Counted from the first letter of the stretch, positions 34,308 to 58,981 are shown. The stretch: DNA of 64,000 bases from Candidatus Dormibacteria bacterium (GCA_049518775.1 JBEKRL010000004.1:4968-68967); one strand, 5' to 3'. Notes: generated by a model from the sequence alone, not told the origin. Numbers and translations are program-made.

Positions 34308-34312
34308 GGCCG

Positions 34313-35266: not shown

Positions 35267-35434
35267 GCCTGTTCTCCCTTCCAACTCCTGCTCATATACA
35301 TCTCCTTCTGCTGCCACTTCGCCGGCAGCTGGCGGGCACCTCGGTGCACGGGCCTTGAGCTGGCCCTGGCGCACGGAAAGCCCGGCGCCGCAGCCATCAT
35401 AGCTCGGGCGCCGCAAAGGGGGTGGACCTGTGGG

Positions 35435-38294: not shown

Positions 38295-38347
38295 GCCATC
38301 TCCTTCACCCTCGCACAGGACGGCACCCGCAGCCGTGGCCCAACCGG

Positions 38348-39730: not shown

Positions 39731-39794
39731 GCCCGACCTCCTGGCCGATTCGACCCGGGCGCGCGGATGGGCCCGGGGACGCCCCTGCCGCTGG

Positions 39795-41165: not shown

Positions 41166-41391
41166 CGCGGCCCCCTGGGGATCGTGACCGGAGATCGCAG
41201 GGGTGGCGGAGGAGCGGGCCAGCGGGTGTCGACCTGGTCGCAGGAAGATGCGGCAGACCGCGCCGGCCGCCCCTCCCCCTCCCGGCTGGAAGCGGTTGGC
41301 GCTGCCCTTGTCCAGGCTGCAGCGGGCGGCGCCCCGCGATGGAGCCGGACGGGCTCCACCGCCTCCTGGCGGCGTATGTCGCGGTCCGAAC

Positions 41392-42444
41392 TCATGGCGC
41401 CGGGTTCGCCTGACCGCCGGCCCCGGAACCGGGGGTGACACCCTCAAGGCCGCCGGCGAAGAGGTCGATCATGGCCCGAACGTCCGGACCCAGCGGGTAC
41501 AGCACCGGGCAGGTGCAGCCGCTGGCGACGTACTCGGCAACCTTGGCCCGGCACTCGTCGGGCGTCCCGGAGGCGCTGAGCATCTGCACCACGTCATCGG
41601 GCACCAGGTGGGCGGCCTCCACCACCTCCGCATGGGTGGCCGGCCAGTGCAGCACCGCGGCGATGCGGTCGAGCAGGTCCTGGGGTACGCCCGACGCCTT
41701 CATGAGATGGGGCTGCTGGCCCAGGTACTGGGTGATCAGCAGGCGCGCCGCATCCAGCGCCACCCGGCGGTCCCGGTCCAAGGAGCAGATGACCAGCTGG
41801 GGACGGTCGACGTCCACGACCCCGCGGCCGGCCCGCGCCGCCCCTTGTTGCAACTGCTCCAGCGCCTGGCGGGTGTAGCCGGGTGACACCAGATAGTTGA
41901 GCAGGACCCCATCAGCTATCTCCCCCGCCAGCTCCATCATCCGCGGCCCGGTGGCGCCGATGTAGATCGGTACCGCCTTGGGTCGCCGCTCCTGATGCAC
42001 GTAGTCCAGCTCCACCGCGTCGAGGTGGACGAACTCTCCCTGGAAGGTCACCGACCCGCCCGCCAGCAGAGCTCGGACCGTGGTCACCGTCTCTCTCATG
42101 GCGACCACCGGCCGGGAGCGCTGGATGCCGACGCGGCTGGCCAGGGGGTCCCACCAGTCACCGATCCCGAGCATGACCCGACCCGGCGCCAGGTCGTCCA
42201 GGGTGGAGAAGGTGGAAGCCAGCAGCGCGGTGTTGCGCGTCCACCGGTTGACCACGCCGCTGCCCACCAGGATCCGCTCGGTCGCGGTGAGGAACGCGGC
42301 CATGGGTACCGTCGCCTCCCGGGCCAGCCGGCTCTCGGCCTGCCATACCGCGGAGAAGCCATTGGCTTCGGCGTACTGGGCCAGGGTGATCCCCTGGCGC
42401 ACGGAGTGGGCGTCCTGAAGGTAGAGGGCGACGGGGACGGTCAC
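41392..42444 (-). CDS. LLM class (luciferase-like) flavin/F420-dependent oxidoreductase
   Basis: typical LLM N-terminus [20 protein letters not shown] and TIM-barrel length. Confidence 0.7.
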
Positions 42445-42633: not shown

Positions 42634-43779
42634 CTAGTTCCCCGGGCTGTCTCCGACCACCGCCCGGTAGCCGGCCGGATCGGTGGCCCCCTCGGTGTTC
42701 ACGATCAGCACCCGCGCCTTCCGGCCCAGGCCCAGCGCCAGGCGGGCCTGCCGCTGCTCTGCCAGAGCCAGCAGTCCCGCCACGCCCGCGGCGCCTGACT
42801 CCCCGGATTCGACGCCGGCGGCCGCCAGATCGCGCATCGCCTTCCGGGCCCACTCATCATCGATGGCGCAGAAGACGGTGGCGAGCGCCTGGACGTAGGG
42901 CCAGGCCACCAGGGACGGTGTTCCGCAGTTCAAACCGGCCATGATCGAGTCCTGGGTGGCATCGACACTGGTGCGCCGGCCCGCGCGTGCCGAGGCCAGG
43001 CAGCAGGCGGCGGTCAGGGGCTCGACGACGGCCATTCGAGGCGGCCGGGGGACGCTCAGGTAGTACCTGGCGGCCGCCCCGGCCAGGGCCCCGACGCCCG
43101 CCTGGATCAGCACCACGTCCACCGGTCCGGGAAGCTGGTCGGCGCACTCCGCAAAGATGGTCTGGTAGCCATCCATGACCCAGCCGGGGACGGTCACGTC
43201 CGTCCCGATGGCCACGTCGACCACCAGCAGCCATCCCTGGCTCGCGGCGGCGGCGGTGGCGGCCTCCACCGCCTGGTCGAAGGTGCCCGGTTCCACCCGC
43301 ACCAGCGCGCCCTCGCCCTCGAGGGCCTCGATCCGGGCGGGTACGGTCTCGTCGGGGACATACACGACCGCGTTCAGGCCGAGCTCGCGAGCCATGTGAG
43401 CCACGCCTCGGCCGTGGTTGCCGTCGGTGGCGGTGACCAGGGTGAGGTCGCCCATGCCGGCGGCCGCCGCCTGCAGCTGGGCCCAGCCCGATCCGGCGAA
43501 GGGCAGGCCCGCTCGTCCCAGGATCAACCGGTTGACGGCCCAGGAGCCACCCAGGATCTTGAAGGAGGGGAGGCCGAGGCGCTCGCTCTCGTCCTTGATC
43601 CAGAGCTCGCCAACTCCGAGCTCCTCCGCAAGCTTGGGGAGGAGGTGCACGGGCGTGGGCGCGTAGCCCGGGATGGTGCGGTGGAAGGGCCTCGGATCCT
43701 GGACACCCTCGACGGGCTCGCTCGGACGCGGTCCCGCGTCCAGCACCAGCACCTCCGGGGGGGTGGCCGCAGGACTCAT
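42634..43779 (-). CDS. 2,3-diaminopropionate ammonia-lyase (YgeX/DpaL-like, PLP fold II)
   Basis: FKILGGSWA, TATDGNHGRGVA and IVNTEGATDP motifs, closely resembling E. coli YgeX. Confidence 0.75.
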   Translation of the reverse strand: MSPAATPPEVLVLDAGPRPSEPVEGVQDPRPFHRTIPGYAPTPVHLLPKLAEELGVGELWIKDESERLGLPSFKILGGSWAVNRLILGRAGLPFAGSGWAQLQAAAAGMGDLTLVTATDGNHGRGVAHMARELGLNAVVYVPDETVPARIEALEGEGALVRVEPGTFDQAVEAATAAAASQGWLLVVDVAIGTDVTVPGWVMDGYQTIFAECADQLPGPVDVVLIQAGVGALAGAAARYYLSVPRPPRMAVVEPLTAACCLASARAGRRTSVDATQDSIMAGLNCGTPSLVAWPYVQALATVFCAIDDEWARKAMRDLAAAGVESGESGAAGVAGLLALAEQRQARLALGLGRKARVLIVNTEGATDPAGYRAVVGDSPGN

Positions 43780-43996: not shown

Positions 43997-46966
43997 CTAC
44001 CCGTCCTCGCCGGCGGGCGCCGCGGCCGCGCTCTGGAGCGCAGCCCACACCCGCGGTGGGGTGAGCGGGATCTGGCGGATGCGGACGCCAGTGGCATCAG
44101 CCACCGCATTCGCCACCGCCGGGGCCACCCCGTCCAACGGGATCTCGGCGACCGCCTTGGCCCCGTAGGGACCGAAGGGGTCATGGGTCTCGACCAGATA
44201 GGTATCCATCGAGGGCATGTCCTGGGCGCCGAAGATCCGGTACTCGGCCAGATCGGTGGTCAGCAGTCGGCCGGCGCCGTCGTAGAGCATCTCCTCGCTG
44301 ACGGCGTAGCCGAGCGCCTGGGTGACGCCGCCGTCCACTTGGCCCTCGGCGGTGGCCGGGTTGATGGCGCGCCCGCAGTCGACCGCGGACACCACCCGCA
44401 GGACCGTCACCGCCCCGGTCTCGGTGTCGACCTCGACCTCAACGAACTGGGCCGCGAACGGCGGCGGCGAGTTGTTGCTCATGTAGGAGGCGGTGGCCAT
44501 GATCTGATGCTGGTCCTCGACGTGCAGGGAGTGCAGCGCGACCTCTGAGACACTGACCCCCGGCCCTTCCGGGCTGCTCACGATCCGGTTGGCGCACTGC
44601 AGCCGGTCCGGGGCAGTGCCGAGCATGGCGCCGGCCACCGCGAGGATCTGCGTCCGCGCCCGTTCCGCCGCCAGCTTCACCGCTCCGCCGGAGATGTAGG
44701 TGGTGCTGGAGGCGTAGGCCCCGGTGTCGAAGGGGGTGAAGTCGGTGTCGGAGGAATGGATGATGATGTCCTCGAGCGGGACCCCGAGAACCTCGGCGGC
44801 GATCTGGGCCAGCACCGTGTCGGATCCGGTGCCGAGATCGGTCGCCCCCACCAGCAGGTTGAAGGACCCGTCGTCGTTGAGCTTGATGCTGGCGGCACCC
44901 ATGTCCAGGCCGGCGATGGCGGTCCCGTGCATGGCGATCGCCATGCCGATCCCGCGTCGGAGGGGCCCGCGATCGGCTCCCTTCCGCCTGCGCTCCCAGC
45001 CGATCGCCGCCGCCCCCTTCTCCATGCAGTCCACCAGCCCACAGCTCTCGATGATCTGAGGCAGGCCCTCCTTGCCCTCGCCGAGCGCCTCCGCCAGGAT
45101 GTTCTGGTCCCCCACGCGCACGCAGTTCTGGAGGCGCAGGACCAGCGGATCCATTCCCAGGCGGCGCGCCACCTCATCGATCTGGCTCTCCAGGGCGAAG
45201 AAACCCTGGGGCGCGCCGTAGCCCCGAAAAGCACCGGCGGGGGGAAGGTTGGTGTACACGACGTCGGCCACGAAGCGCACGTTGGGGACTCGGTAGATGG
45301 GAAGCGACTTGGAGCCGGTGTTGCCCTGCACGGTGAGGGCGTGAGTCCCGTAGGCGCCGGTGTTGCCGAGGACGTACATGTCGTTGGCCACGATGGTGCC
45401 GTCGCGGTTGGCCCCGGTGCGCAGGCGGATGCGCTGCGGGTGGCGCGAGCGGCTGCTGCGGAACTCCTCAGCCCTGGTGTACTCGAGCCGCACCGGCCGG
45501 TTGGTCGCCATGGTCAGGTGGGCGCAGATGTCCTCGATCAGCACCTCCTGCTTGACCCCGAAGCCACCGCCGATCCGTGGCTTGATGACCCTGATCCGCC
45601 GCGGTGGCAGGCCGATCACGGGCGCGATGATGCGGCGGACGTGGTAGGGCACCTGGGTGCTGGTGCGCACCACCATGCGCTCATCCTCATCCCAGTAGGT
45701 GATGACGATGTGATTCTCCAGGGGAGTCTGCTGTACCTGGGGCACCAGGTACTCCGCCTCGACCACCAGGTCGGCCTCCGCCAGCGCCTTCTCCACATCC
45801 CCCACCTCGGCCTCGATGCGGGCGGCGAGGTTCCGGTCTCGGTCCTCGATGTGATAGGCCTCCGGCTCGGGATGGATGCAGGGCGCCCCGGGCCGCATCG
45901 CCTCTTGCGGATCCAGGACTGCGGGCAGGATCTCGTAGTCCACCTCTATCAGCTGGAGCGCCCGCTCGGCGATCTCCTCGGTGTCGGCGGCGACCGCGGC
46001 GACGCGATCTCCGACGAACCGGACCACCGAGTCCAGGCTGAACTGGTCATGAGGGCCCGGTTCGGGCCAGGACTGGCCCGCAGAGGTGTACACGACGCGG
46101 GGCAGGTCCGCGTAGGTGAGCACGGCGTGGACGCCGGGCAGGCCCCGGGCGGCGCTGACGTCGATTCGGCGCAGGCGCGCGTGGGCATGGGGGCTGGTCA
46201 ACAGCTTGGCGTGGAGCAGGCCCCGGAGCTCGACGTCGTCCACGAAGCTGGGACTGCCCGCGGTCAGCTTGGGGGCGTCGACCTTGCGCTCGCGCTTTCC
46301 CACCACCTGCAGCTGCTCGGCCGGACGGGCCGGGGGCGCGCCCGACTCCGGCTGCCGGTTGCGGCCCTGTCGGTCGCCCGGCCCGGTGGAGCCGTCATCC
46401 CCGTCATCCCCGCCGTCCGGCTGCCGCGGATCGGCGATACGGGGAGCCCACGGGTGCCCCGCATCCAGTGGCCTGAGGGCACCTGGCGGCCCCGCGCCGG
46501 GAGCATCTCCCCGCATCACCGCCGCCGCCTGGAGAATCGCCTCAACCGGCTTGAGGTAGCCGGTGCACCGGCAGAGGTTGCCTGACAGGGCGTCCCGGAC
46601 CTCGGCCTCGGAGGGGTTGGGCTCGCGGTCCAGCAGGGCCTTGGCCCCGAGGACCATCCCGGGGATGCAGAAGCCGCACTGCACCGAGCCGTTGTCCACC
46701 AGAGCTTGCTGGATCGGGGTCAGCCCCGTGGACCGTCCCAGGCCCTCGACCGTGGTCAACCGGCGCCCCTGGGCCTGGGCCGCCAGCATGACGCAGGTCA
46801 CGCGCGGCACCCCGTCGACGAGGACGGTGCACACACCGCACTCCCCGGTCTCGCATCCGTGCTTGACACTGAAGACGCCGGCGGAGCGCAGAGCCTTTAG
46901 CAGGGAGGTGTTGGGGGCGACCTCGAGCTCCAGGGAGCTGCCATTGAGCTCGCAGCGGAGCTTCAT
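43997..46966 (-). CDS. molybdenum hydroxylase, fused [2Fe-2S] + molybdopterin-binding subunit (XdhD-like)
   Basis: N-terminal ferredoxin CGFCIPGMVL...GNLCRCTGY followed by aldehyde-oxidase/xanthine-dehydrogenase a/b hammerhead and MoCo-binding domains (989 aa); ATG overlaps FAD subunit stop. Confidence 0.85.
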   Translation of the reverse strand: MKLRCELNGSSLELEVAPNTSLLKALRSAGVFSVKHGCETGECGVCTVLVDGVPRVTCVMLAAQAQGRRLTTVEGLGRSTGLTPIQQALVDNGSVQCGFCIPGMVLGAKALLDREPNPSEAEVRDALSGNLCRCTGYLKPVEAILQAAAVMRGDAPGAGPPGALRPLDAGHPWAPRIADPRQPDGGDDGDDGSTGPGDRQGRNRQPESGAPPARPAEQLQVVGKRERKVDAPKLTAGSPSFVDDVELRGLLHAKLLTSPHAHARLRRIDVSAARGLPGVHAVLTYADLPRVVYTSAGQSWPEPGPHDQFSLDSVVRFVGDRVAAVAADTEEIAERALQLIEVDYEILPAVLDPQEAMRPGAPCIHPEPEAYHIEDRDRNLAARIEAEVGDVEKALAEADLVVEAEYLVPQVQQTPLENHIVITYWDEDERMVVRTSTQVPYHVRRIIAPVIGLPPRRIRVIKPRIGGGFGVKQEVLIEDICAHLTMATNRPVRLEYTRAEEFRSSRSRHPQRIRLRTGANRDGTIVANDMYVLGNTGAYGTHALTVQGNTGSKSLPIYRVPNVRFVADVVYTNLPPAGAFRGYGAPQGFFALESQIDEVARRLGMDPLVLRLQNCVRVGDQNILAEALGEGKEGLPQIIESCGLVDCMEKGAAAIGWERRRKGADRGPLRRGIGMAIAMHGTAIAGLDMGAASIKLNDDGSFNLLVGATDLGTGSDTVLAQIAAEVLGVPLEDIIIHSSDTDFTPFDTGAYASSTTYISGGAVKLAAERARTQILAVAGAMLGTAPDRLQCANRIVSSPEGPGVSVSEVALHSLHVEDQHQIMATASYMSNNSPPPFAAQFVEVEVDTETGAVTVLRVVSAVDCGRAINPATAEGQVDGGVTQALGYAVSEEMLYDGAGRLLTTDLAEYRIFGAQDMPSMDTYLVETHDPFGPYGAKAVAEIPLDGVAPAVANAVADATGVRIRQIPLTPPRVWAALQSAAAAPAGEDG

Positions 46967-47901
46967 CCGGCGGCCCCGCGGGAGGGGTCCGCGCGGTCGG
47001 TGGCGGCGCGTTGGGCGGCTTGGCGGATGGCCCGCCGCAGGAGCACGCGGCTCACCGCCCCCCGGTAGCGCCTCGAGGCCCGGAAGTCGTCGCCAGGCAG
47101 CACCGCCTCAAGGCCCCGGTCCAGCGCCCGGTCCACCGCGGCGGCGGCGAGGTCGGTCCCGCGCAGCTCCGCCTCTACCCCCGCAAGCCGGACCGGTGCC
47201 CATCCGGCCCCGCCCAGCGCCAGCCGCACGACACAGCCACCGCCGGCGCAGGGCTCCACCACGGCCACCGCGTGGAGCAGCGCCGGGTCGCTGGCTGTGC
47301 GCGCCACCCGCAGGAAGGAGGCCCCGCGCCCGGGTCCGACGGCGGACCCCGACGGGGCTCGGCCGGTGACCAGGCCGGTTTGATCCGGATGGGGGACCTG
47401 GACCTGGAGGAGGATGCCCGGCGTCGGGAGCCCGTCCCTGCAGTCCGCCATTGCCAGCTCGTGCTCCCGGCCTTCCAGGCCCATAACTCTCACCCTGGCC
47501 TCAAGCGCCAGCAGCACCACCGCCAGGTCGGCTCGGGAGGCGCTCCCCAGCGCCAAGGTCCCCCCGAGGGTGGCGGCGTTGCGCAGCATTCGGGTGGCGG
47601 AGCTCTGCGCGGCGGCCGCGATCACCCCCCACCACAGGGCCCGGCTGGTGCGGTCCTCGGCCAGAGCCTGCAGGGTCGTCGTGGCCCCGATCACCAGGCC
47701 GTCGGGGTCGAAGCGGATGAAGTCGAGGCCGAGGCCGCCGAGGTCCACGACGGCCTCCACTCCGGCGGCCGGGCCGCCGCTGAGAGCCGTGGCACCGCCG
47801 AGTGGCACCGTGCGAGGCCGCACCCGAGACAGGAGCCTCAGGGCCTGCGCCATCTGGATGGGGCGGTCGTACTCGAGCAGGTCGGCGAGCATCCGCTCCA
47901 C
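46963..47901 (-). CDS. molybdenum hydroxylase FAD-binding subunit (CoxM/YgfM-like)
   Basis: FAD-binding-5 domain pattern (PLGGATAL...NAATLGGTLA); overlaps both neighbours by 1-4 nt. Confidence 0.75.
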   Translation of the reverse strand: MERMLADLLEYDRPIQMAQALRLLSRVRPRTVPLGGATALSGGPAAGVEAVVDLGGLGLDFIRFDPDGLVIGATTTLQALAEDRTSRALWWGVIAAAAQSSATRMLRNAATLGGTLALGSASRADLAVVLLALEARVRVMGLEGREHELAMADCRDGLPTPGILLQVQVPHPDQTGLVTGRAPSGSAVGPGRGASFLRVARTASDPALLHAVAVVEPCAGGGCVVRLALGGAGWAPVRLAGVEAELRGTDLAAAAVDRALDRGLEAVLPGDDFRASRRYRGAVSRVLLRRAIRQAAQRAATDRADPSRGAAG

Positions 47902-49619
47902 TATGCCTGAATCGGGATCAGGCGGCCGGCCTCAACGTCGACCAGCCCCTGGTCGGTCAACTTCAACGCCGGGATCACCGACAGGCAGAGGAAGCTGAGG
48001 GTCGAGCAAGGGTGCGCCAGCCGGCAGCCCAGCGCCGCGGCGGCCTGATCCAGCGCCCCCAGCTGGGCCACGAGCACCGCCGCCGGGGCGTTCGACACCA
48101 GGCCCGCGACGGGCAGGGGGACGGTGGCCAGCACCCGGCCGCCGGCCGCCACCGCGAAGCCGCCCTTGGCCTGGATCACCGCCTCCATGGCCAGCAGCAT
48201 GTCGGCGTCGTCGACCCCCACCGCCAGCAGGTTGTGGGCGTCGTGGGCCACCGTGGAGGCGATCGCCCCCTGGCGCAGGCCCATCCCCCGTACCAGGCCC
48301 AGGCCCGCACGCCCGCTCCCGTGGTGGCGATCCACCACGATCATCTTGCAGAGGTCGCGCGCCGGGTCGGCCACCACCTGGCCGTCGCACCAGGGGGCCT
48401 CCTCGGTGAGGTGCCGGGTGGTGACCGTCCCGTCCTCCACCCCGATGACGGCGGCCGGCCCGGGCCGGCCCCGGATCATCAGCATCTCGGCCGTGAGCGG
48501 CGCCACCCGCAGCCCCTGCCAGGTCGGAGGCGGATCGCTGGCGGGGACAGCGAAGAGCGGCCGGCCCTGGTCCGCCACCAGGACCCCATCCTTGTAGACG
48601 GACTGGACCTGGAAGCGCTCCAGGTCCTCCACCACCACCAGGTCCGCCACGTACCCGGGTGCCACCACCCCGCGATCCCGGAGCCCGAAATACTGGGCGG
48701 TGTTCAGGGTCGCCATCCGCACCGCCTCGATGGGATCGAGCCCGGCCGCGATCGCCTCCCGCACCACTGAGTCGATGTGGCCCCGGGTCATGAGGTCAAC
48801 GGGGTCGCGATCGTCGGTGGCGAACAGGGCCCGGGGCGGATGCAGCTCCTGGATGACCGGCAACAGGGCGTGGAGGTTGCGGGTGGCGGATCCCTCGCGC
48901 ACCATCAGCCACATCCCCAGACGCAAGCGCTCCCGGGCCTCCTCCGGGGTAGTGCACTCGTGGTCGGACATGGGGCCGGCGGTCGCATAGGCGCAGAGGT
49001 CACGGCCGCTGAGTCCCGGCGCATGCCCATCGACCACTCCCCCCTGCGCGCGCACCGCCTCAATCTTGGCGAGCACGTCGGAATCGCCCGCCAGCACCCC
49101 GGAAATGTCCATCATCTCGGCCAAGCCGAGTACCTTGGGGTGCTCCAGGAGCGGCACCAGGTCCGCCGCACTGAGTGGTCTTAGCGGGGTCTCGAAGGGC
49201 GAGGCCGGCACGCAGGACGAGAGCATCACGTAGGTGGAGAGGGGCACGTCGCGGCCCGAATCGAGCACGTAGCGGATCCCGTCGATGCCCAGGACGTTGG
49301 CGAATTCGTGAGGATCCAGGACGACCGTGGTGGTCCCGTGGGGCACCACCATCTGGGCGAACTCGGCCAGCACCATCATCGTGCTCTCCAGATGCATGTG
49401 CGCGTCGATCAGCCCGGGTACCAGGAAGCGTCCCTCCAGCTCGACCTCGCGGATCGCCCGGTAGCCCGGTCCCAGTGCCACCACCCGGCCCTCGGCCACC
49501 ACCACATCGGTGGGCTCGACTCTCCCAGTACACACGTTGACCAGGTTGGCGCCTCGCAACAAGAGATCGGCGGGTTCGTGTCCGCGGGCGACCGCAATGC
49601 GATGACCGAGACCCATCAT
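47901..49619 (-). CDS. ade: adenine deaminase
   Basis: GLIDAHMHLESTM metal site, ~570 aa two-domain architecture. Confidence 0.85.
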   Translation of the reverse strand: MMGLGHRIAVARGHEPADLLLRGANLVNVCTGRVEPTDVVVAEGRVVALGPGYRAIREVELEGRFLVPGLIDAHMHLESTMMVLAEFAQMVVPHGTTTVVLDPHEFANVLGIDGIRYVLDSGRDVPLSTYVMLSSCVPASPFETPLRPLSAADLVPLLEHPKVLGLAEMMDISGVLAGDSDVLAKIEAVRAQGGVVDGHAPGLSGRDLCAYATAGPMSDHECTTPEEARERLRLGMWLMVREGSATRNLHALLPVIQELHPPRALFATDDRDPVDLMTRGHIDSVVREAIAAGLDPIEAVRMATLNTAQYFGLRDRGVVAPGYVADLVVVEDLERFQVQSVYKDGVLVADQGRPLFAVPASDPPPTWQGLRVAPLTAEMLMIRGRPGPAAVIGVEDGTVTTRHLTEEAPWCDGQVVADPARDLCKMIVVDRHHGSGRAGLGLVRGMGLRQGAIASTVAHDAHNLLAVGVDDADMLLAMEAVIQAKGGFAVAAGGRVLATVPLPVAGLVSNAPAAVLVAQLGALDQAAAALGCRLAHPCSTLSFLCLSVIPALKLTDQGLVDVEAGRLIPIQA

Positions 49620-49699
49620 CGGCGCCTCCTTGCAGTCGGACGGTCACTTCTGGCCAGAATCGACCAGTGCCACTCCGGCGGCACAGGCGTTCGTCGTGG

Positions 49700-49731
49700 G
49701 TGACCCCTCGGTTGAAGCCGATCAGTATAAT
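49700..49731 (+). promoter_or_regulatory. candidate promoter for plus-strand xdh operon (perfect TATAAT at 49726)
   Basis: TATAAT hexamer in 72% GC DNA, -35-like GTGACC ~19-20 nt upstream; 150 nt upstream of TTG 49883. Confidence 0.3.
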
Positions 49732-49882
49732 TCTGGGATGTCTGCCAGAGGATCGCGGGCTGCCTCCGGGAATTGGTGGGGCGCCCTCGGGTCGGCCAGC
49801 ATCACGCGGGGCTGGTGGCCCTGGCGGGTGGCGTCGGCAGGGCCGCCTTGGCGTCGGTCGCGACTCACAAGGTGGCCATGAC

Positions 49883-50806
49883 TTGACGGCTGCGGTCGGC
49901 GAGATCTATCTCGACCGAGGCCGGGCGGCAGCACCAGTTTCCCCAACCACCGTGCTGGTGGGGGTGCGCGGTGCGGGGGAGATGGCCACCGGGGTCATCC
50001 ACCGCCTGCGCCGGTCGGGGTTCCCCGTGGTGGCTGCGGAGATGGAGCAGCCGACGGTCGTTCGCCGCTCGGTGGCCTTCGCCAGCGCGGTCTGGGAGGG
50101 CCGCGTGGAGGTGGAGGGAGTCACCGCGGTGAGGGTCGACGACGGTGAGGGTGCGGCGGCGGCGTTGGGCTTGGGGCAGGTGGCCATCCTCGTGGACCCC
50201 AGCGCGGAGCTGCTGCTGGGGCTTCGCCCCCAGGTGCTGGTGGACGCCATCCTCGCCAAGCGCAATTGCGGCACCCGGCGGGCCGACGCTCCGCTGGTGA
50301 TCGGGCTCGGCCCGGGGTTCACCGCCGGGGACGATGTCGACGCCGTGGTCGAGACCAATCGGGGCCATCACCTCGGCCGTGTCCTGCTTCGGGGCAGCGC
50401 CCAGCCCAACACCGGGGTCCCCGCGCCTGTCGGCGGGCACAGCGCTGACCGGGTCCTGCGGGCGCCGCGCCCGGGCCGCCTGCTGGGGTGCCAGCGCATC
50501 GGCGATGAGGTGGCGGCCGGCACCGTGGTGGCAAGCGTGGATGGAGAGCCGGTGGTTTCGAGCATCGCGGGGACGCTGCGGGGCCTCCTGCATGACGGGG
50601 TGGAGGTCAGCAGCAACATGAAGGTCGGCGACGTCGACCCCCGCGCCGTCCCCGAATACTGCTTCACGATCTCCGACAAGGCCCGCGCCCTGGGGGGGGC
50701 GGTGCTGGAGGCAATCCTGATGCTCTATCCTCTCGCCGCCCAGCGCCCGGCCGGCGAGGTCGATGCCCTGACGGTGGCCGGCGGCGGGTGGCCAGGAACA
50801 TGTTGA
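49883..50806 (+). CDS. YqeB/EF2563-like (XdhC-Rossmann-like) selenium-dependent Mo-hydroxylase maturation protein candidate
   Basis: LVGVRGAGEMATGV Rossmann start and VIGLGPGFTAGDDVDAVVETNRGHHLGRV motif; TTG 49883 with AAGGTGG RBS (ORF open from 49667); family assignment from memory, not verified. Confidence 0.5.
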   Translation: MTAAVGEIYLDRGRAAAPVSPTTVLVGVRGAGEMATGVIHRLRRSGFPVVAAEMEQPTVVRRSVAFASAVWEGRVEVEGVTAVRVDDGEGAAAALGLGQVAILVDPSAELLLGLRPQVLVDAILAKRNCGTRRADAPLVIGLGPGFTAGDDVDAVVETNRGHHLGRVLLRGSAQPNTGVPAPVGGHSADRVLRAPRPGRLLGCQRIGDEVAAGTVVASVDGEPVVSSIAGTLRGLLHDGVEVSSNMKVGDVDPRAVPEYCFTISDKARALGGAVLEAILMLYPLAAQRPAGEVDALTVAGGGWPGTC

Positions 50807-51672
50807 GAATCGACGCCTACCACCGGCCTGCCACGCTCGACCTGGCGCTGGCACTGATGACGGAGGGCCGGACCGTCGTGGCGGGCGGGACCGACCTCCT
50901 GGTCAATCCTCGCTACCTGGTTGGGGTCACCGAGGTGGTGGACCTCGGTGACCTGCCGCTGGACTTCGTGGAGGTGGAACCGGACCTGATCCGCATCGGC
51001 GCCAATGCCACCATGGCCAGGGTGGCCGCCTCGCCGGAGGTTCGTGCCCTGGCTGACGGCATCGTCAGCCGGGGAGCGGCGGTCTGTGGGTCGCCCAACA
51101 TCCGCAACATGGCGACCCTGGTCGGCAACGTGGCCTCCGCGCTTCCGTCCTCCGACACTCCGCCACCCCTCCTGGTCCTGGGGGCCCGGGTGGTGCTGCG
51201 GAGCCGCAGCGCCACCCGCCGGTTGGCGCTGGAGGAGTTCTTCCTCGGACCGGCGGTCAGCGCGCGTCGCCCGGATGAGCTGGTCGAGAGTGTGGAGATT
51301 CCCCGTCCGCGGCCCGGCACCAGGGGTGGCTTCTACAAGGTGAAGCGCACCGCCGACGACATCGCCATCGTCAACAGCGCGGCCTGCCTGTGTGTCGAAG
51401 AGGGGCGGATAGCCTTCGCCCGAGTGGTGGTGGGAGCGGTGGCGCCCGTCCCGCTGCGGATTGCGGCTGCGGAGCAGCACCTGCTCGGTCGGCAGCCAAG
51501 CGAAGAGGTGCTCGCGGAGGCCGGCCGCCTCGCGGCCGCCGCCGCCCGGCCCATCACCGACCAGCGGGCGACGGCGGAGCATCGACGCCATCTGGCCGGG
51601 GTCTGCGCGACTCGTGCCCTGCGCCAGGCGGCGGGGCTGGATCCCCACGGCGCGGAGCTGGAGCATGCCTGA
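50800..51672 (+). CDS. xanthine dehydrogenase family FAD-binding subunit
   Basis: FAD-binding domain of molybdopterin dehydrogenases (VAGGTDLL...NMATLVGNVASA); ATG overlaps upstream stop (ATGTTGA). Confidence 0.75.
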   Translation: MLRIDAYHRPATLDLALALMTEGRTVVAGGTDLLVNPRYLVGVTEVVDLGDLPLDFVEVEPDLIRIGANATMARVAASPEVRALADGIVSRGAAVCGSPNIRNMATLVGNVASALPSSDTPPPLLVLGARVVLRSRSATRRLALEEFFLGPAVSARRPDELVESVEIPRPRPGTRGGFYKVKRTADDIAIVNSAACLCVEEGRIAFARVVVGAVAPVPLRIAAAEQHLLGRQPSEEVLAEAGRLAAAAARPITDQRATAEHRRHLAGVCATRALRQAAGLDPHGAELEHA

Positions 51673-52213
51673 GCCGACCCCGGTCACCATCGAGTGCACG
51701 GTCAACGGCCGGCTGCACCGCTGGCAGTCGCCGCCCGGGGCCACCCTGCTGGAGGCCCTCCGGGAGGCCCACGTGCGGGGGCCCAAGCTGGTGTGTGGCA
51801 CCGGCGACTGCTGCGCCTGTGGAGTCATGCTCAACGGGCGTTCGGTGAACTCCTGCTGCACCCTGGCGGCCCAGGCCGCGGGGGCGACCGTGCTCACCGT
51901 GGAGGGTTTGGCCGAGGATGGCCAGCTTCATCCCCTCCAGGCTGCCTTCCTGGAGACCGGCGCGGCCCAATGCGGCTTCTGCACCCCCGGCCTCCTCATC
52001 CGCGCCTACGCGCTCCTGCAGGCCCAGCCCGATCCCGACGAGGCGGCGGTGCGGGTCGCCCTCGGTGGCAACATCTGCCGCTGCACCGGCTACGTCAAGC
52101 CGGTGGAGGCCGTGTTGGAGGCAGCCAGGCGGATGCGGGCGGCGGCGGCGGATGCCACCCGCCAGGGGTCGGTCGAGCCCGGACTGCCCGCCTCGGACTC
52201 CGCCCTCCGATGA
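51665..52213 (+). CDS. xanthine dehydrogenase family [2Fe-2S] small subunit
   Basis: CGTGDCCACGV and CGFCTPG, NICRCTGY motifs; ATG overlaps upstream stop. Confidence 0.85.
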   Translation: MPEPTPVTIECTVNGRLHRWQSPPGATLLEALREAHVRGPKLVCGTGDCCACGVMLNGRSVNSCCTLAAQAAGATVLTVEGLAEDGQLHPLQAAFLETGAAQCGFCTPGLLIRAYALLQAQPDPDEAAVRVALGGNICRCTGYVKPVEAVLEAARRMRAAAADATRQGSVEPGLPASDSALR

Positions 52214-54687
52214 GCACCCGCACGCCACCACGCAGCGCCCCGCCGGGCGCGCCGGGCGTCGCCCCGCCCCTGCGCGTGGTCGGCAGGGGGCTGCCCCGGG
52301 TCGACGGGCGGGCCCTGGTCACGGGCAGCCCCGTGTACACGGCGGACATGGACGTGCCGGACATGCTCCACGGCAAGATCCTGCACTCGCCGCTGGCCCA
52401 TGCCCGGATCGTGGCCATCGACACCGGCGCCGCTCGGGCCCTGCCGGGGGTTCGCGCGGTGCTGACCCACTTAGACGTGCCCGCGATCCTTCACGCCACC
52501 GCCGGCCAACCCTTCCCGGAGCTATCGCCCTACGACACCCGACTGCTCGATCCCCACCTGCGTTATGTCGGGGACTGGGTCGCCCTGGTGGCGGCCGAGA
52601 GCGAGGCCATCGCGGAGGCGGCGCTGGCGCTGATCAAGGTGACCTACCAGGAGCTGCCGGCAGTGTTCGACCCCGTCGAGGCGATGCGCGACGGCGCCCC
52701 TAAGCTCCACGAGCCCGACGTCGCCCACCCGCTCTTCGAGCGGTCGCCCGGGCCCACCTATGACGCGCGGCACAACATCGCCGGCCACGAGGAGATCTGG
52801 CGCGGGGCCGACTTCGCGACCACCATGGCCGCGGCCGACCACATCGTCACCGGGACCTACCACACTCCGCGGATCGCCCACTGCGCGCTGGAGCCCCACG
52901 TGGCGATCGCCCACGCCGACGGATACGACCGGCTCAACGTTTGGAGCAGCACCCAGGTCCCATACCACACCCGCCGTCAGCTGGCCCGGGTCCTCCAGTG
53001 GCCGGTCTCGCGCATCCGCGTGATCAAGCTGCGCGTGGGCGGCGGCTTCGGCGGTAAGCAGGAGATGGTGCTCGAGCCCGCGGTCGCGGTCCTGGCGATG
53101 GCCACCGGACGACCGGTGCGGATCCTCTACAGTCGCCAGGAGGAGTTCGCCGCCAGCCGGGTCCGGCACCCGATGACCATTCACATGCGCTCTGGGGTGG
53201 CCAGCGACGGGACCCTTCTCGCCCTGGAGATGCGCGTCATCTCTGACACCGGGGCCTACGGGGGGCACGGTCTGACGGTGGCCCAAGGGGCTGGTCACAA
53301 GACGCTCTGTCTCTACCGGGCCCGCGCCTATCACTTCGTGGCCGACGCGGTCTACACCAACTCGCCGGTGTCGGGAGCGATGCGCGGCTACGGGGCACCC
53401 CAGGGGTACTTCGCACTGGAGTCGCACATGGACGAGATCGCGGCCAGGCTGGGGCTGGACCCCCTCGACTTCCGCCGCCGCAACCATGTCCGCCGGGGCG
53501 ACTACGACCCCATCAATCTGGACTCCTCCTCAGGAGTGCCGCGGTCACAGCGGCACTTTCGCTCCTGTGCCCTGCCGGAGTGCCTCACCCGGGGCGCCGA
53601 GGCGATCGGCTGGGACCTGCCGTTCGATCGTGGTCAGGGGGTCGTGCGGCGCGGCCGTGGCCTGGCCACCGCCATGCAGGGCAGCGGCGTCGCCGGTTCA
53701 GAGCTGGGCGGGGCCAGCATCAAGATGAACGAGGACGGCTCCTTCAACGTGATGACCGGGGCCACCGACATCGGCCAGGGCAGTGACACCGTCCTGGCTC
53801 AGATCGCGGCCGAGACCCTCGGCGTCGGGCTGGACAAGATCATCATGCACTCGTCCGACACTGACATCGACGTGTTCGACTACGGCTCCTACGCCTCCTC
53901 CACCACCTTCGTCACCGGCACCGGGGTGCGGCTGGCCGCCGAGGCGGTCCGGGACCAGATCCTGGCGGTGGCGGCCCGGATGACGGGGTGCCCCGCCGCC
54001 GACCTGCACCTGGAGGATGGGCGTGTCCACGCCGCCGGTGGGCCCCTCGGGCTCACCCTGGCCGAGGTGGCGCTAGAGACCCTCTACGGTTCCCGGCGAC
54101 AGCAGATCATGGCCAGCGGGCACGCCTCCTGCCATGACTCGCCTCCACCCTTCCACGCCCAGTTCGTGGAGATTGCCGTCGACTGCGAGACGGGCCAGAT
54201 CCGGGTTGAACGCTCCGTCAATGCCATCGACATGGGTCGGGCCATCAACCCCCGCCTTGCCAGCGGCCAGGTGGAGGGGGCGATCGCGATGGGGCTGGGA
54301 TTCGCGCTCAGCGAGGAGCTGCTGATGGACGAGCGCGGGCAGGTCCGCAATCCCGCCTTCGTCGATTACAAGGTGCTCTCCTGCCTCGACATGCCCGCCA
54401 TGACCACCATCCTGGTGGACGACCCCGAGCCCACCGGTCCCTTCGGGGCGAAGTCCTGCGGCGAGGTCCCGATCAACACCCCGGCTCCGGCCGTGGCCAA
54501 CGCCCTCTTTGATGCGCTGGGCATCCGGGTGCGCAGTCTGCCGATCACCGCCGAGAAGGTGCTGGCCGCCCTCCGGGCCAGGGACTCTGCGCCGACCGGG
54601 CCGGTCGCTCACCCCGGTGGCCCCTTCGCTCCGCAGGACGGCGCGGGGCACCAGTCGGTGCCCCGGTGCTCCGGCCCGGGATCGTGA
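52210..54687 (+). CDS. xanthine dehydrogenase family molybdopterin-binding large subunit
   Basis: a/b hammerhead + MoCo-binding domains, 825 aa; ATGA overlap with FeS subunit. Confidence 0.85.
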   Translation: MSTRTPPRSAPPGAPGVAPPLRVVGRGLPRVDGRALVTGSPVYTADMDVPDMLHGKILHSPLAHARIVAIDTGAARALPGVRAVLTHLDVPAILHATAGQPFPELSPYDTRLLDPHLRYVGDWVALVAAESEAIAEAALALIKVTYQELPAVFDPVEAMRDGAPKLHEPDVAHPLFERSPGPTYDARHNIAGHEEIWRGADFATTMAAADHIVTGTYHTPRIAHCALEPHVAIAHADGYDRLNVWSSTQVPYHTRRQLARVLQWPVSRIRVIKLRVGGGFGGKQEMVLEPAVAVLAMATGRPVRILYSRQEEFAASRVRHPMTIHMRSGVASDGTLLALEMRVISDTGAYGGHGLTVAQGAGHKTLCLYRARAYHFVADAVYTNSPVSGAMRGYGAPQGYFALESHMDEIAARLGLDPLDFRRRNHVRRGDYDPINLDSSSGVPRSQRHFRSCALPECLTRGAEAIGWDLPFDRGQGVVRRGRGLATAMQGSGVAGSELGGASIKMNEDGSFNVMTGATDIGQGSDTVLAQIAAETLGVGLDKIIMHSSDTDIDVFDYGSYASSTTFVTGTGVRLAAEAVRDQILAVAARMTGCPAADLHLEDGRVHAAGGPLGLTLAEVALETLYGSRRQQIMASGHASCHDSPPPFHAQFVEIAVDCETGQIRVERSVNAIDMGRAINPRLASGQVEGAIAMGLGFALSEELLMDERGQVRNPAFVDYKVLSCLDMPAMTTILVDDPEPTGPFGAKSCGEVPINTPAPAVANALFDALGIRVRSLPITAEKVLAALRARDSAPTGPVAHPGGPFAPQDGAGHQSVPRCSGPGS

Positions 54688-55877
54688 CCAGCCCGCACCC
54701 GGATGGTGCTGCCGTCTTCGCCGTCCTCGGTGAGTTGCTGGCCCGGGGGGAGGCGGTGGCCCTGGCCACTATCGTCGGGCAGCGCGGCTCGACGCCGCGC
54801 GAGATCGGAACCAAGATGTTGGTCCGCTCGAACGGGGCCATCGTCGGCACCGTGGGCGGTGGAGCGGCCGAGGCGGAGGTCTGCCGGCAGGCGGCGGTGG
54901 TGCTGGAGAGCGGTCGGTCCCAGCTCCTCACCCTCGACTTCAACGGCACCCTGGAGCAGCCGGGGCTGGGCATCTGCGGGGGCAGCGTCGACGTGTTCAT
55001 CGAGTCCTGGAGCAGCTGTCCCCCCCAGGCCGCGCCCGGCCCAGAGGCGGTCGGTGGGGCCGCGGAGGTTGTCCGCGCCGCAGTGGGCGCCCTGGAGGAG
55101 GGCCGTCCCGTCACCCTGGTCACGGTGATTGACGCCGAGGGCCGCTGGGCGGCCGCTGCCGGCGCGCGGATCCTTTTCGGCGACCGCGGGCCAGTCAGTG
55201 CGGTCACCGCCCCGGAGGAGCTGATGGCCCAGGCGGCGCTGGCCACAGTCGGCCCGCGGCCCGGGCCGACGGCAGGGACCTGGGTCCGGACGCTTACCGC
55301 GGGGGACGGCGTCGCGCAGGCCCGGGTCCTGGTCGAGCCGCTGCGCCCGCCGGAGGCGCTCCTCATCATGGGTGGCGGGCACATCGCCCAGCCCTTGGCC
55401 GCGATCGCCACCATCTGCGGCCTCGCCGTGACCGTTGTCGACGACCGCCCGGGCCTTGCCACCCCGGCCCGCTTCCCAACGGCTCGAGCCGTGACGGCCG
55501 ATGCGGCCAGCTTCCTGGCCCAGCGCCTCCCCGGGGCCGAGACCCATGTGGTGTTCGTGAGCCGGGGGCCAGCGCAGGACATGGCCGGGCTGCGGGCTCT
55601 CCTGAACTCCGCCGCCGGCGGTTACGTGGGGCTGATCGGCAGTGAACGCCGGGTCTGGTCCGTGCTCACGGCGCTCCGCGCCGAGGGCGTGCCAGCGGAA
55701 CAGTTGGCCCGGGTCCACGGGCCGGTGGGGCTCGCCCTCGGCGGCACGTCACCGGCGGAGATCGCCCTGGAGATCATGGCCGAGATGCTGGGGTGGCGGC
55801 ACCAGAGCACCGGTCAGGAGCGGTCGGCCCGCCTGCGCCGGCGCCTCCTCACTCCGGTGGCGCCGGCCTCAGGCTGA
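54684..55877 (+). CDS. XdhC/CoxI family molybdenum-cofactor insertion accessory protein
   Basis: XdhC N-domain (AVLGELLARGEAVALATIVG..GSTPR) + Rossmann C-domain (LLIMGGGHIAQPLA); GTGA overlap with large subunit. Confidence 0.75.
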   Translation: MTSPHPDGAAVFAVLGELLARGEAVALATIVGQRGSTPREIGTKMLVRSNGAIVGTVGGGAAEAEVCRQAAVVLESGRSQLLTLDFNGTLEQPGLGICGGSVDVFIESWSSCPPQAAPGPEAVGGAAEVVRAAVGALEEGRPVTLVTVIDAEGRWAAAAGARILFGDRGPVSAVTAPEELMAQAALATVGPRPGPTAGTWVRTLTAGDGVAQARVLVEPLRPPEALLIMGGGHIAQPLAAIATICGLAVTVVDDRPGLATPARFPTARAVTADAASFLAQRLPGAETHVVFVSRGPAQDMAGLRALLNSAAGGYVGLIGSERRVWSVLTALRAEGVPAEQLARVHGPVGLALGGTSPAEIALEIMAEMLGWRHQSTGQERSARLRRRLLTPVAPASG

Positions 55878-56358
55878 TCACCTGCGATTCGGGACGGACG
55901 ACCACCGCCGGGCAGTGGGCGTGGGTCGCGCAATGCTGGGAGACCGACCCCAGCAGGAGGCCGACAACCCCTCCGTGCCCCCGCGAGCCGACCACCCGCC
56001 GCGAGGCCCGTTCGCTGGCATCGGTCAGGAGCTGGGCGACTGAGCCCTCGACCGTCCTGCCCTCGATCTGAACCGCGGGGTGCTCCTGGGAAGCCGCGGC
56101 GATTTCCGTCGCCAGGACCTTCTGGTGGTAGTCGGTCAGCTCTTCCACGTCGGCGGGGTCGAAGAGGAAGCCGGGAGCTGCCGTGCCCAGGGTAGGGATG
56201 AGGTAGGAGCTGATCGCCAGGACCCGCTGGCCGCGGACCTCCGCCTCTCGGCCCGCCCACTCCAGGGCCTTGCGCGAGGCCTCTGAGCCGTCGACTCCGA
56301 CCACGATCGGAAGGGGCTGGCTCTCCGTTTCCGAGATGGTGTTCGGAGTTCTGGTCAT
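55849..56358 (-). CDS. universal stress protein (UspA family)
   Basis: IVVGVDGSEASRKALEWA ... GSRGHGGVVGLLLGSVSQHC motifs. Confidence 0.75.
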   Translation of the reverse strand: MTRTPNTISETESQPLPIVVGVDGSEASRKALEWAGREAEVRGQRVLAISSYLIPTLGTAAPGFLFDPADVEELTDYHQKVLATEIAAASQEHPAVQIEGRTVEGSVAQLLTDASERASRRVVGSRGHGGVVGLLLGSVSQHCATHAHCPAVVVRPESQVISLRPAPPE

Positions 56359-56543
56359 CGGACCCGGTGGCTTTATGCGGCGGTCGGGACGATGGCTGAG
56401 ACGTCTTGTGCAACCGCCTCCACCATCAGCCTCAGCTGGCGGCGCGGCAAAGATGTGACCCTGGCGCGCACCTCAGTTGGGGGGCGCTCCCTAGCGGCAG
56501 CGCCGATCCCGGCCGGTCTGGAAGGGGAGAGGGCGGCGCTACC

Positions 56544-58274: not shown

Positions 58275-58981
58275 TTTCTCGGAGCCCCGGGCCGGACGAA
58301 GCGGGTAGCCTCGACCCCGTGACGGGTGCGGGCGTGACCACCATCGTGCTGGCGGAGGACCACGCCCTGGTGCGTGAGGGCACCAGGCAGATCCTCTCGG
58401 CACAGAGCGACCTCAGGGTCGTGGGGGAGGCCGCCAGGGGCGACGAGGCGGTGCGGGTGGTCCTGGAACTGCGTCCGGACGTGGTCCTGATGGACATGCG
58501 CATGCCGGGGATGAACGGGATCGAGGCGACGCGCCAGATTCTGGCCCGGGCACCGGCCACCAAGGTCGTCATCGTCAGCGCCCATGAGGACGCCGACTAC
58601 GTTCGCGAGGCGCTGGCCGTGGGAGCGGCCGGCTACATCCTCAAGACGGCGCCGGCCCGGGAGCTGGTGGAGGGCATCCGTGCGGTGGCCGTGGGTTCGC
58701 TGGTGCTCTCGCCCAGCCTCTCCCGGCGTCTGGCCCAGTCCCGCGACGAGCCCGCCAGGGCCAGCGACCGGCTGAGCGCCCGGGAGCTGGCGGTGCTTCG
58801 TGAGATCGCCCTGGGTCACGGGAACAAGGAGATCGCCCGCGACCTGGGCATCAGCCTGCGCACGGTCGAGGGCCATCTCCACAACATCTTCGAGAAGTTG
58901 CGGGTCACCTCCAGGACCGAGGCGGTGGTGTACGCGGCCAACCGCGGGATCGTCTCCATCGAGTCGACCGAGGCCAGATGA
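58271..58981 (+). CDS. response regulator, NarL/FixJ (LuxR-type HTH) family (DosR/DevR-like)
   Basis: REC domain (IVLAEDHALVREG...DVVLMDMRMPGMNG) + LuxR HTH (LSARELAVLREIALGHGNKEIARDLGISLRTVEGH); GTGA overlap with kinase. Confidence 0.8.
   Translation: MISRSPGPDEAGSLDPVTGAGVTTIVLAEDHALVREGTRQILSAQSDLRVVGEAARGDEAVRVVLELRPDVVLMDMRMPGMNGIEATRQILARAPATKVVIVSAHEDADYVREALAVGAAGYILKTAPARELVEGIRAVAVGSLVLSPSLSRRLAQSRDEPARASDRLSARELAVLREIALGHGNKEIARDLGISLRTVEGHLHNIFEKLRVTSRTEAVVYAANRGIVSIESTEAR

Follow-up and report, generated by a model that had tools for sequence, protein, structure and literature searches.

Escherichia coli degrades purines with the help of two enzymes of the xanthine dehydrogenase (XDH) family, XdhABC and XdhD-YgfM, which "act sequentially" (Li et al., PMC12507026). 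XdhD-YgfM converts urate to 2,8-dioxopurine with NADH, YgfK and SsnA then reduce and open the ring, and HyuA, YgeW/YqeA, YgeY, and YgeX complete the route to pyruvate (Li et al. 2025, PMC12507026). According to the same study, an F420-type luciferase-family enzyme replaces YgfK/UacX in the clusters of Chloroflexota (Li et al., PMC12507026). Clostridium sporogenes has a dehydrogenase for 2,8-dioxopurine (DOPDH) as well as a separate XDH, both of which are SelD dependent, and YqeB and YqeC co-occur with the pathway (bioRxiv 10.1101/2025.04.24.650524). Here we analyzed positions 43997 to 54687 of a 64,000-nucleotide stretch of DNA from a Candidatus Dormibacteria bacterium (GCA_049518775.1, JBEKRL010000004.1:4968-68967; the whole 64-kb stretch is called the window below), where two XDH-family enzymes are encoded side by side on opposite strands. 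One is a fused protein that contains both the [2Fe-2S] part and the molybdenum cofactor (Moco) part and that has a separate FAD subunit. The other is a three-gene enzyme with individual FAD, [2Fe-2S] (FeS), and Moco subunits; we refer to its Moco subunit as Moco2. Most likely, the locus is the form that the cluster for reductive purine degradation via 2,8-dioxopurine ("yanthine") takes in Dormibacteria/Chloroflexota.

The fused protein (989 amino acids; 43997-46966, minus strand) is XdhD-like and contains the Pfam domains Fer2, Fer2_2, Ald_Xan_dh_C (the a/b-hammerhead domain), MoCoBD_1 (280 bits), and MoCoBD_2 (269 bits). More than 100 database clusters of 975 to 1009 amino acids have the identical fused architecture, so the open reading frame (ORF) is genuine and not a frameshift artifact. 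A disordered linker rich in Gly, Pro, and Asp (about residues 150 to 215) connects the FeS and Moco parts. This low-complexity stretch of about 65 residues, at window positions 46320 to 46520, contains PDGGDDGDDGSTGPGDRQGRNRQPESGAPPARP and would be consistent with a gene fusion. The FAD subunit of the fused enzyme is encoded directly upstream (46963-47901, minus strand; 312 amino acids when counted from a GTG, with an ATG 9 nucleotides downstream as a second possible start), and its gene overlaps the fused gene by 4 nucleotides, in the position that YgfM has in E. coli. Its matches to FAD_binding_5 (70 bits) and CO_deh_flav_C (46 bits) are present, the former being weaker than that of its three-gene counterpart (121 bits), and it is 25.6% identical to YgfM and 27.9% identical to XdhB. 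The first gene of this minus-strand operon encodes an adenine deaminase (ade; 47901-49619; TIGR01178, 557 bits against a cutoff of 472.5).

The three-gene enzyme is encoded on the plus strand by genes for the FAD subunit (50800-51672; FAD_binding_5, 121 bits; CO_deh_flav_C, 84 bits), a [2Fe-2S] subunit of 182 amino acids (51665-52213; Fer2_2, 101 bits), and the 825-amino-acid Moco2 (52210-54687), identified by its Pfam domains, with the two MoCoBD domains scoring 280 and 246 bits. The FAD subunit starts at the ATG at 50800 or at the GTG at 50788. A 997-amino-acid ORF that opens at 51694 is an upstream extension of Moco2, whose true start is the ATG at 52210. The stop codon of the preceding gene, yqeB, overlaps the start of the FAD gene (ATGTTGA), the FAD/FeS junction is the stop/start overlap ATGCCTGA, and the FeS/Moco junction is an ATGA overlap. 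A preliminary description of this region, made from the sequence alone, had proposed two XDH-family enzymes of different architectures, one of them XdhD-like with a separate, overlapping FAD subunit, and translational coupling of the plus-strand genes, and each of these points is borne out by the ORFs, cofactor motifs, and overlapping stop and start codons. The overlapping FAD gene upstream of the fused gene is also reminiscent of ygfM-xdhD. As read from the sequence, the two operons are separated by a divergent intergenic region of about 260 bp (49620-49882). In relatives this region contains a gene for an IclR regulator; there is none at 49620-49882 in the window.

The cofactor motifs are intact in both enzymes. 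For the alignments we used a fragment of bovine XDH (residues 795 to 1285, checked to be identical to PDB 1FO4) and the E. coli XdhA and XdhD proteins taken from NC_000913. Both Moco proteins retain the GGGFGxKQ and RGYGAPQ motifs, the G(Q/T)G loop, and the ASS motif, and the catalytic Glu (Glu1261 in the bovine enzyme) is kept as E941 in the fused protein and as E752 in Moco2. All eight Cys ligands for two [2Fe-2S] clusters are present in the fused protein as well as in the FeS subunit. By domains and cofactor motifs, both proteins are members of the xanthine oxidase/Mo-hydroxylase family. Their Moco parts are 49.7% identical to each other, and the two FAD subunits are about 32% identical. 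The preliminary description had named loss of the Moco-binding residues in one large subunit, or near identity of the two as recent duplicates, as findings that would speak against two different enzymes. Neither protein is a pseudo-enzyme or a recent duplicate, because the motifs and the eight Cys residues are intact and the identity is only 49.7%.

The same description had pointed to the Glu and Arg of the XDH substrate pocket, a comparison that proved uninformative about the roles. The canonical XDH signature of bovine xanthine oxidoreductase and Rhodobacter capsulatus XDH, Glu802/Arg880, is absent from both window enzymes in the alignment. The position of Glu802 is occupied by Gln473 in the fused protein and by Gln284 in Moco2, and E. 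coli XdhA and XdhD likewise have Gln. At the position of Arg880 we found Asn549 and Gly360, respectively, with no Arg nearby, and XdhA and XdhD are also without this Arg.

At the level of the pathway, the reading of the locus as encoding an XDH together with a urate 6-dehydroxylase of reductive purine degradation is much firmer than the specific assignment of the two roles. SsnA, HyuA, YgeX, carbamate kinase, SelD, YqeB, and adenine deaminase each exceed the curated NCBIfam cutoff of their family. As to which enzyme does what, we lean toward the view that the three-gene enzyme is the XDH and that the fused enzyme, together with its FAD subunit, is the reductase that converts urate to 2,8-dioxopurine. 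Three lines of evidence lead to this assignment, namely, the ygfM-xdhD-like architecture of the fused enzyme, residues that are invariant within each clade, and the synteny that is kept when the two modules are found apart. The assignment is based on gene order, signature residues, and synteny and not on orthology. The sequences show the gene content, the intact cofactor motifs, the paralogy, and the conserved synteny, from which the reaction of each enzyme, its direction, the selenium dependence, and the electron carriers are inferred.

With respect to the residues, N549, LGEGK with E630, I684, T713, and A940-E941-I942 of the fused protein are invariant in 120 of 120 orthologue clusters. The fused protein matches XdhD at N549, at LGEGK/E630 (E606 in XdhD), and at I684, T713, and I942, and neither protein has a Gly before the catalytic Glu (A940 in the fused protein, S916 in XdhD). 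Moco2 has GQG (Q523) and G751-E752, as do XdhA and bovine XDH, and these states are again invariant in all 120 orthologue clusters. When 81 clade-diagnostic columns were compared, the state of the fused protein equaled that of XdhD in 26 columns versus 17, and the state of Moco2 equaled that of XdhA in 27 versus 17. With respect to synteny, when the two modules do not lie side by side, the fused enzyme remains with SsnA (loci L084/85 and L039) and the three-gene enzyme remains with IclR and YqeB (L087 and L091).

Under this assignment, purine degradation would proceed as follows. Adenine deaminase, and probably also a TRZ/ATZ-family deaminase, would supply hypoxanthine and xanthine, and the three-gene enzyme (50800-54687) would oxidize hypoxanthine via xanthine to urate. 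The fused protein and its own FAD subunit (43997-47901) would then catalyze the reductive loss of the C6 oxygen of urate, yielding 2,8-dioxopurine, which in turn would be reduced by an F420-type luciferase-like (LLM) oxidoreductase in place of YgfK/UacX. The ring would be opened by SsnA and the hydantoinase, the ureido groups would be removed by the carbamoyltransferases and carbamate kinase with a yield of ATP, and pyruvate would be formed by diaminopropionate ammonia-lyase. Both XDH-family enzymes would be redox entry enzymes, one of them oxidizing and the other reducing the purine ring. Starting from hypoxanthine, the XDH would release four electrons, as many as the two reductive steps would take up, and this balance may be the rationale for keeping both enzymes together. 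The preliminary description had suggested two successive purine-ring hydroxylations. The two enzymes probably do act sequentially in purine catabolism; the cluster context indicates, however, that the second step is likely a reductive 6-dehydroxylation of urate and not a hydroxylation.

Several observations weigh against our assignment. Each of the window Moco proteins is about 37 to 38% identical to both XdhA and XdhD, the fused protein being 36.8% identical to E. coli XdhD over its full length. None of the family models that would settle the roles is reached: the fused protein scores 725 bits with TIGR03313 (XdhD/YgfN; cutoff, 1101.9), its FAD subunit scores 61 bits with TIGR03312 (YgfM type; cutoff, 241.5), and Moco2 scores 732 bits with NF043082 (XdhA; cutoff, 780) and 703 bits with NF007426 (cutoff, 916). 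In a bootstrapped neighbor-joining tree of the Moco domains, an exclusive group of Moco2 and XdhA received 0% bootstrap support, as did an exclusive group of the fused protein and XdhD. The position aligned with E630 is Asp in 84 of 120 Moco2-clade sequences, and the T/A signature is present in both tandem haloarchaeal paralogues. Cotranscription of the ade gene with the fused gene might point to hypoxanthine as the compound that the fused enzyme oxidizes, and YqeB always accompanies the three-gene enzyme. Of the two selenium-cofactor markers, the second, YqeC, had no match in the 64-kb window when searched by tblastn with E. coli YqeC.

We gave up assigning the roles by global similarity, given the 37 to 38% identity to both references and the missed equivalog cutoffs. 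Phylogeny was given up as well, as both window Moco proteins fall into a superclade with E. coli XdhD that has 100% support and excludes the XdhA/gut-XDH clade and has weak internal resolution. Inside it the fused protein groups with Moco2 and the haloarchaeal clades at 60%, and no internal grouping exceeds that value. The clostridial DOPDH clade is separate, again with 100% support, and lies further off, at about 30% identity to the window proteins. Based on the tree placement, the three-gene enzyme is no orthologue of XdhA but a paralogue that belongs to the XdhD superclade. As the tree does not pair Moco2 with XdhA, the XDH role of the three-gene enzyme would follow from exclusion and from the convergence of its signature. 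E630 (XdhD E606) was also considered as the sole discriminator, and this idea was weakened by the Asp found at that position in the Moco2 clade.

The strongest alternative, which we nevertheless regard as unlikely, is that the roles are swapped, with the fused enzyme being the hypoxanthine/xanthine dehydrogenase and the three-gene enzyme being a selenium-dependent urate 6-dehydroxylase. Such an exchange would fit with the ade-FAD-fused gene order, which is conserved in relatives, with the equal distance of both proteins from XdhA and XdhD, and with the frequent Asp at the E606-equivalent position of the Moco2 clade. It would also fit with the finding that YqeB and XdhC always flank the three-gene enzyme, considering that DOPDH of C. 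sporogenes is selenium dependent. However, the XDH of C. sporogenes is selenium dependent too, and therefore the adjacency of YqeB does not discriminate between the two possibilities. The XdhD-type residues, the XdhD-like fusion, and the ygfM-like upstream FAD gene are all on the side of the fused enzyme, and it is this enzyme, and not the three-gene enzyme, that remains beside SsnA when the modules separate.

A less likely alternative still, and the one put forward in the preliminary description, is that both enzymes are oxidative hydroxylases that differ in regiospecificity or substrate, for example, a purine/hypoxanthine hydroxylase and an XDH, as in purinolytic clostridia. The downstream SsnA, HyuA, YgeX, and LLM proteins belong to a pathway that starts from 2,8-dioxopurine, the cluster holds no other candidate for the 6-dehydroxylation of urate, and the window ORFs that were scanned included neither a uricase gene nor genes of the allantoin pathway. 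These observations argue against two hydroxylases, even though both enzymes have the complete oxidative-type chain (FAD, two [2Fe-2S] clusters, and Moco) and the catalytic Glu and the family is reversible in vitro.

It is improbable that one of the enzymes acts on a nonpurine compound, such as a nicotinate-like N-heterocycle, an aromatic coenzyme A (CoA) ester, or an aldehyde, and is a mere neighbor of the purine cluster. Among the solved structures, that of 4-hydroxybenzoyl-CoA reductase is closest to both Moco proteins (406 and 363 bits), a match that would agree with a nonpurine substrate, as would the absence of the canonical Glu802/Arg880 pair; yet E. coli XdhA and XdhD lack this pair and act on purines. 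Similarly, the three-gene module stands alone in some Ktedonobacteria, but relatives with as little as about 62 to 69% identity still have it paired divergently with the purine operon. The nicotinate-like substrate raised in the preliminary description is not favored, since nicotinate dehydrogenase, whose Moco subunit is split, matches much less well, with a score far below that of 4-hydroxybenzoyl-CoA reductase. The readings as nicotinate dehydrogenase and as CO dehydrogenase were both rejected on score and context. Finally, redundant isoenzymes, or one decaying copy, are very improbable: the two proteins are indeed paralogues of one superclade with 50% identity, but all cofactor motifs are intact in both, each clade has its own invariant active-site states across 120 clusters, and both enzymes are kept together in distant relatives.

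Returning to the assignment that we prefer, with the three-gene enzyme as the XDH and the fused enzyme as the urate reductase, the cluster also contains genes connected with selenium. YqeB, a marker of selenium-dependent Moco maturation, is encoded on the plus strand upstream of the three-gene enzyme (49883-50806; TIGR03309, 349 bits against a cutoff of 220). Its start is uncertain: the ORF opens at 49667, the candidate starts are a TTG at 49883 and a GTG near 49952, and the TIGR03309 match covers residues 100 to 353 of the long ORF. Downstream of Moco2 lies the gene for an XdhC-family chaperone for Moco insertion/maturation, with XdhC_CoxI and XdhC_C domains (54666-55877, plus strand). The single YqeB protein of E. 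coli (541 amino acids) thus corresponds to two separate genes here, both of which flank the three-gene enzyme: the XdhC-family protein is 30 to 37% identical to the N-terminal half of E. coli YqeB, and the window YqeB is 49% identical to its C-terminal half. A Cys-type SelD is encoded inside the cluster as well. The presence of YqeB, the XdhC-family protein, and SelD suggests that the Mo cofactor of one or both enzymes may be of the labile, selenium-containing form. No sequence signature of selenium dependence is known. Just downstream of the XdhC gene (55849-58981 and 63054-63557) are genes for a double-GAF histidine kinase with a response regulator of the LuxR type and for two universal stress proteins.

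The surrounding purine cluster covers about 27 kb (28300-55877) of a window whose G+C content is about 70%, and its remaining genes are on the minus strand. Next to the fused gene lies a gene for a YgeX-like 2,3-diaminopropionate ammonia-lyase (42634-43779; NF006058, 356 bits against a cutoff of 276; 38% identical to E. coli YgeX). It is followed by the gene for the LLM oxidoreductase of the F420-dependent class (41392-42444; PF00296, 213 bits), for which the best NCBIfam matches are F420 LLM families, all below their cutoffs. SsnA, the ring-opening amidohydrolase and a marker of the reductive uricolytic pathway, is encoded at 39795-41447 (NF005540, 459 bits against a cutoff of 444; 33% identical to E. 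coli SsnA) and probably has its true start near 41160. The TRZ/ATZ-family amidohydrolase (38348-39826) is similar to guanine or 8-oxoguanine deaminases by profile and identity comparison. The selenophosphate synthetase SelD (37260-38477; TIGR00476, 358 bits against a cutoff of 125) has the motif GQGGCSAKI, and its true start is probably near 38285. Then follow genes for a protein of 498 amino acids dependent on pyridoxal phosphate (35435-36931; PALP, 51 bits), with weak similarity to CysK (cysteine synthase), an aspartate carbamoyltransferase-like protein (34313-35416; OTCace_N/OTCace; TIGR00670, 247 bits against a cutoff of 237), and an ornithine carbamoyltransferase/YgeW-like protein (33330-34307), identified by profiles and 32% identical to E. 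coli YgeW. A YqeA-like carbamate kinase (32374-33333; NF009007, 385 bits against a cutoff of 266; 46% identical to YqeA), a HyuA-like D-hydantoinase/dihydropyrimidinase (30780-32186; TIGR02033, 554 bits against a cutoff of 393; 43% identical to E. coli HyuA), and, at the edge of the cluster, a permease of the purine/cytosine/allantoin family (28300-30168; PF02133, 157 bits) complete the set. Homologues of the 498-amino-acid protein occur in variant purine clusters of unrelated lineages, namely, in a metagenome-assembled genome (MAG) of the Proteobacteria (L039), in Lacipirellulaceae (L058), in Dormibacteria (L082), and in Ktedonobacteraceae (L084).

Searches of the 64-kb window for YgfK, YgeY, YqeC, MocA, and YgfS/T found none of them. 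There is no 2,8-dioxopurine reductase of the UacX type within the window, no M20 peptidase of the YgeY type anywhere in it, and no purine, Moco, or other riboswitch was detected when the entire window was scanned with Rfam. The YgeW/ornithine carbamoyltransferase-like and the aspartate carbamoyltransferase-like genes adjoin the carbamate kinase gene (32374-35416). Judged from this gene content, phosphorolysis might release the two ureido groups of 2,3-diureidopropionate, so that two carbamoyl phosphates and two ATP would be formed. On either side of the purine cluster (26445-27737 and 59816-62530) are genes for an acetate kinase and for a GNAT-fused protein that resembles ADP-forming acetyl-CoA synthetase. 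This may fit an ATP-yielding end of the pathway from pyruvate to acetate, or it may be a coincidence. Upstream of the cluster, an ORF at 24115-24975 contains ArdC-N and IrrE/M78 peptidase domains, which are typical of mobile elements.

The nearest homologues of both Moco proteins are found in MAGs of Candidatus Dormibacteria (84 to 87% identity), and the next ones are in Ktedonobacteria and other Chloroflexota (62 to 70%). The divergent arrangement of the two modules is also present in one Dormibacteria MAG (L082/83) and in four Ktedonobacteria contigs (L086 and L088 to L090). In the conserved order, YqeB (preceded by IclR where this gene is present), FAD, FeS, Moco, and XdhC are read in one direction, and ade, FAD, the fused protein, and the SsnA cluster are read in the other. 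The Dormibacteria relative L082 encodes a UacY-like Amidohydro_3 protein and an M20 peptidase, in contrast to the two carbamoyltransferases without YgeY in the window. In Ktedonobacteria, the modules are broken up by small genes for SnoaL-like, methyltransferase, GNAT, esterase, NUDIX, and DinB proteins (L086, 1557-2751; L088, 8109-9858; L089, 9614-9973 and 13001-14208; L090, 2606-2965 and 8944-9989), and the compact Dormibacteria version lacks these genes. In the Firmicutes and spirochaete versions of the cluster, two XDH-family enzymes are commonly encoded next to each other, and such pairs occur in haloarchaea as well. The haloarchaeal loci (Haloarcula, Natrinema, and, for L009, Salinibaculum; L007, 9863-20942; L008, 3348-21031; L009, 1158-2222; L010, 6853-17915) have two tandem FeS-plus-Moco pairs that belong to the same superclade, and a long YqeB, SelD, and YqeC are encoded after them. 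The luciferase-like oxidoreductases of L008 and L009 are 56 to 58% identical to the LLM protein of the window, which suggests that the F420/LLM variant of the pathway may extend to the archaea.

The co-occurrence of two such enzymes is already known from E. coli K-12 and from the Firmicutes and spirochaete clusters, and the F420 variant of Chloroflexota has already been flagged in the literature. What appears to be specific to this lineage is the intact FeS domain of the fused enzyme, the XDH partner from the XdhD superclade, and the two carbamoyltransferases without YgeY. A broader scenario, which we offer tentatively and hold to be rather doubtful, is that the entire redox front end of purine degradation in Dormibacteria and Chloroflexota stems from a single lineage, with a duplication within the XdhD-type (urate-reductase) superclade that gave rise both to a fused urate 6-dehydroxylase with an intact FeS domain and to an XDH that converged on an XdhA-like active site. 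Both would be matured by the split YqeB/XdhC system and SelD. They would be linked to the reduction of 2,8-dioxopurine by an F420-dependent enzyme and to a double phosphorolysis, in which two carbamoyltransferases take off both ureido groups and thereby double the ATP yield. If this is true, the locus would encode a module for purine fermentation that conserves energy and is redox balanced, and this in a soil lineage that is usually regarded as aerobic.

The reductive purine/urate pathway has so far been characterized in E. coli and Clostridium, and the present locus would extend it to Dormibacteria and Ktedonobacteria from soil, where an F420-type reductase is apparently present in place of YgfK. 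The pair of XDH and urate reductase would be a conserved syntenic unit in this lineage, and its XDH partner may be recruited from different branches of the family. The locus also calls for caution with best-hit annotation, as relatives of these proteins are labeled "selenate reductase," "aldehyde oxidase," or "xanthine dehydrogenase." Our current understanding is not overturned by these results; the finding is coherent, largely ordinary, and explained for the most part by the literature from 2025.

A comparison with the known systems puts the two enzymes into perspective. The selenium-dependent Mo hydroxylases (Eubacterium barkeri nicotinate dehydrogenase and the clostridial purine hydroxylase and XDH) resemble the window enzymes by the YqeB and SelD markers in the cluster; as discussed above, the split Moco subunit and the low score set nicotinate dehydrogenase apart. 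DOPDH of C. sporogenes (XdhAC; Liu et al. 2025 preprint) resembles the fused enzyme in the reaction proposed for the latter, from urate to 2,8-dioxopurine, in the adjacency to a cluster of the SsnA type, and in the association with SelD and YqeB. Catalysis of this interconversion has been demonstrated only for E. coli XdhD-YgfM and C. sporogenes XdhAC. It differs by belonging to another clade with only about 30% identity, by its canonical Glu/Arg signature (ERR-QGE), and by having neither an FAD subunit nor use of NAD(P)H, whereas both window enzymes have FAD subunits. 4-Hydroxybenzoyl-CoA reductase (PDB 1RM6/1SB3), the best-scoring solved structure for both Moco proteins, is a reductive dehydroxylase without a Gly before the catalytic Glu, as in the fused enzyme and XdhD, but it differs by acting on an aromatic CoA thioester, by having GQG, and by the lack of a purine-cluster context.

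E. coli XdhABC and the XDH of gut bacteria (gbXDH) share with the three-gene enzyme the separate FAD, FeS, and Moco subunits, the Gln at the Glu802 position, the missing Arg880, and the GQG and G-E states. XdhABC is encoded in the same purine cluster as an enzyme of the XdhD type and acts upstream of it. The gene order is FAD-FeS-Moco in the window and Moco-FAD-FeS in E. coli, and Moco2, which is 38% identical to XdhA, never falls into the XdhA clade (0%) and has an insertion that is missing from XdhA. In E. coli K-12, xdhABC and ygfM-xdhD are in one cluster and about 18 kb apart. XdhD-YgfM is like the fused enzyme in its fused FeS-type and Moco domains, in the FAD gene directly upstream with a 4-nucleotide overlap, and in a cluster with ssnA, hyuA, ygeX, a ygeW-like gene, yqeA, and yqeB. 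At the level of residues, the two share the N, the GEGK insertion (its Glu has been proposed to orient urate), the GTG, and the I after the catalytic Glu. Unlike XdhD, the fused protein, which is only 37% identical to it, lies outside the XdhD clade and below the TIGR03313 cutoff, it keeps Arg912, a position that is Gln in XdhD, and its partner reductase is an F420-type LLM protein and not YgfK. The N-terminal domain of E. coli XdhD (L001, 25317-25800) has no cysteine at all and thus 0 of 8 ligand positions, whereas the corresponding part of the fused gene (window positions 46520-46966) keeps 8 of 8, as do the FeS subunit of the three-gene enzyme and E. coli XdhC. The fused enzyme therefore looks like a complete version of E. 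coli XdhD, and with its FeS ligands intact it may serve as a better biochemical model than XdhD itself.

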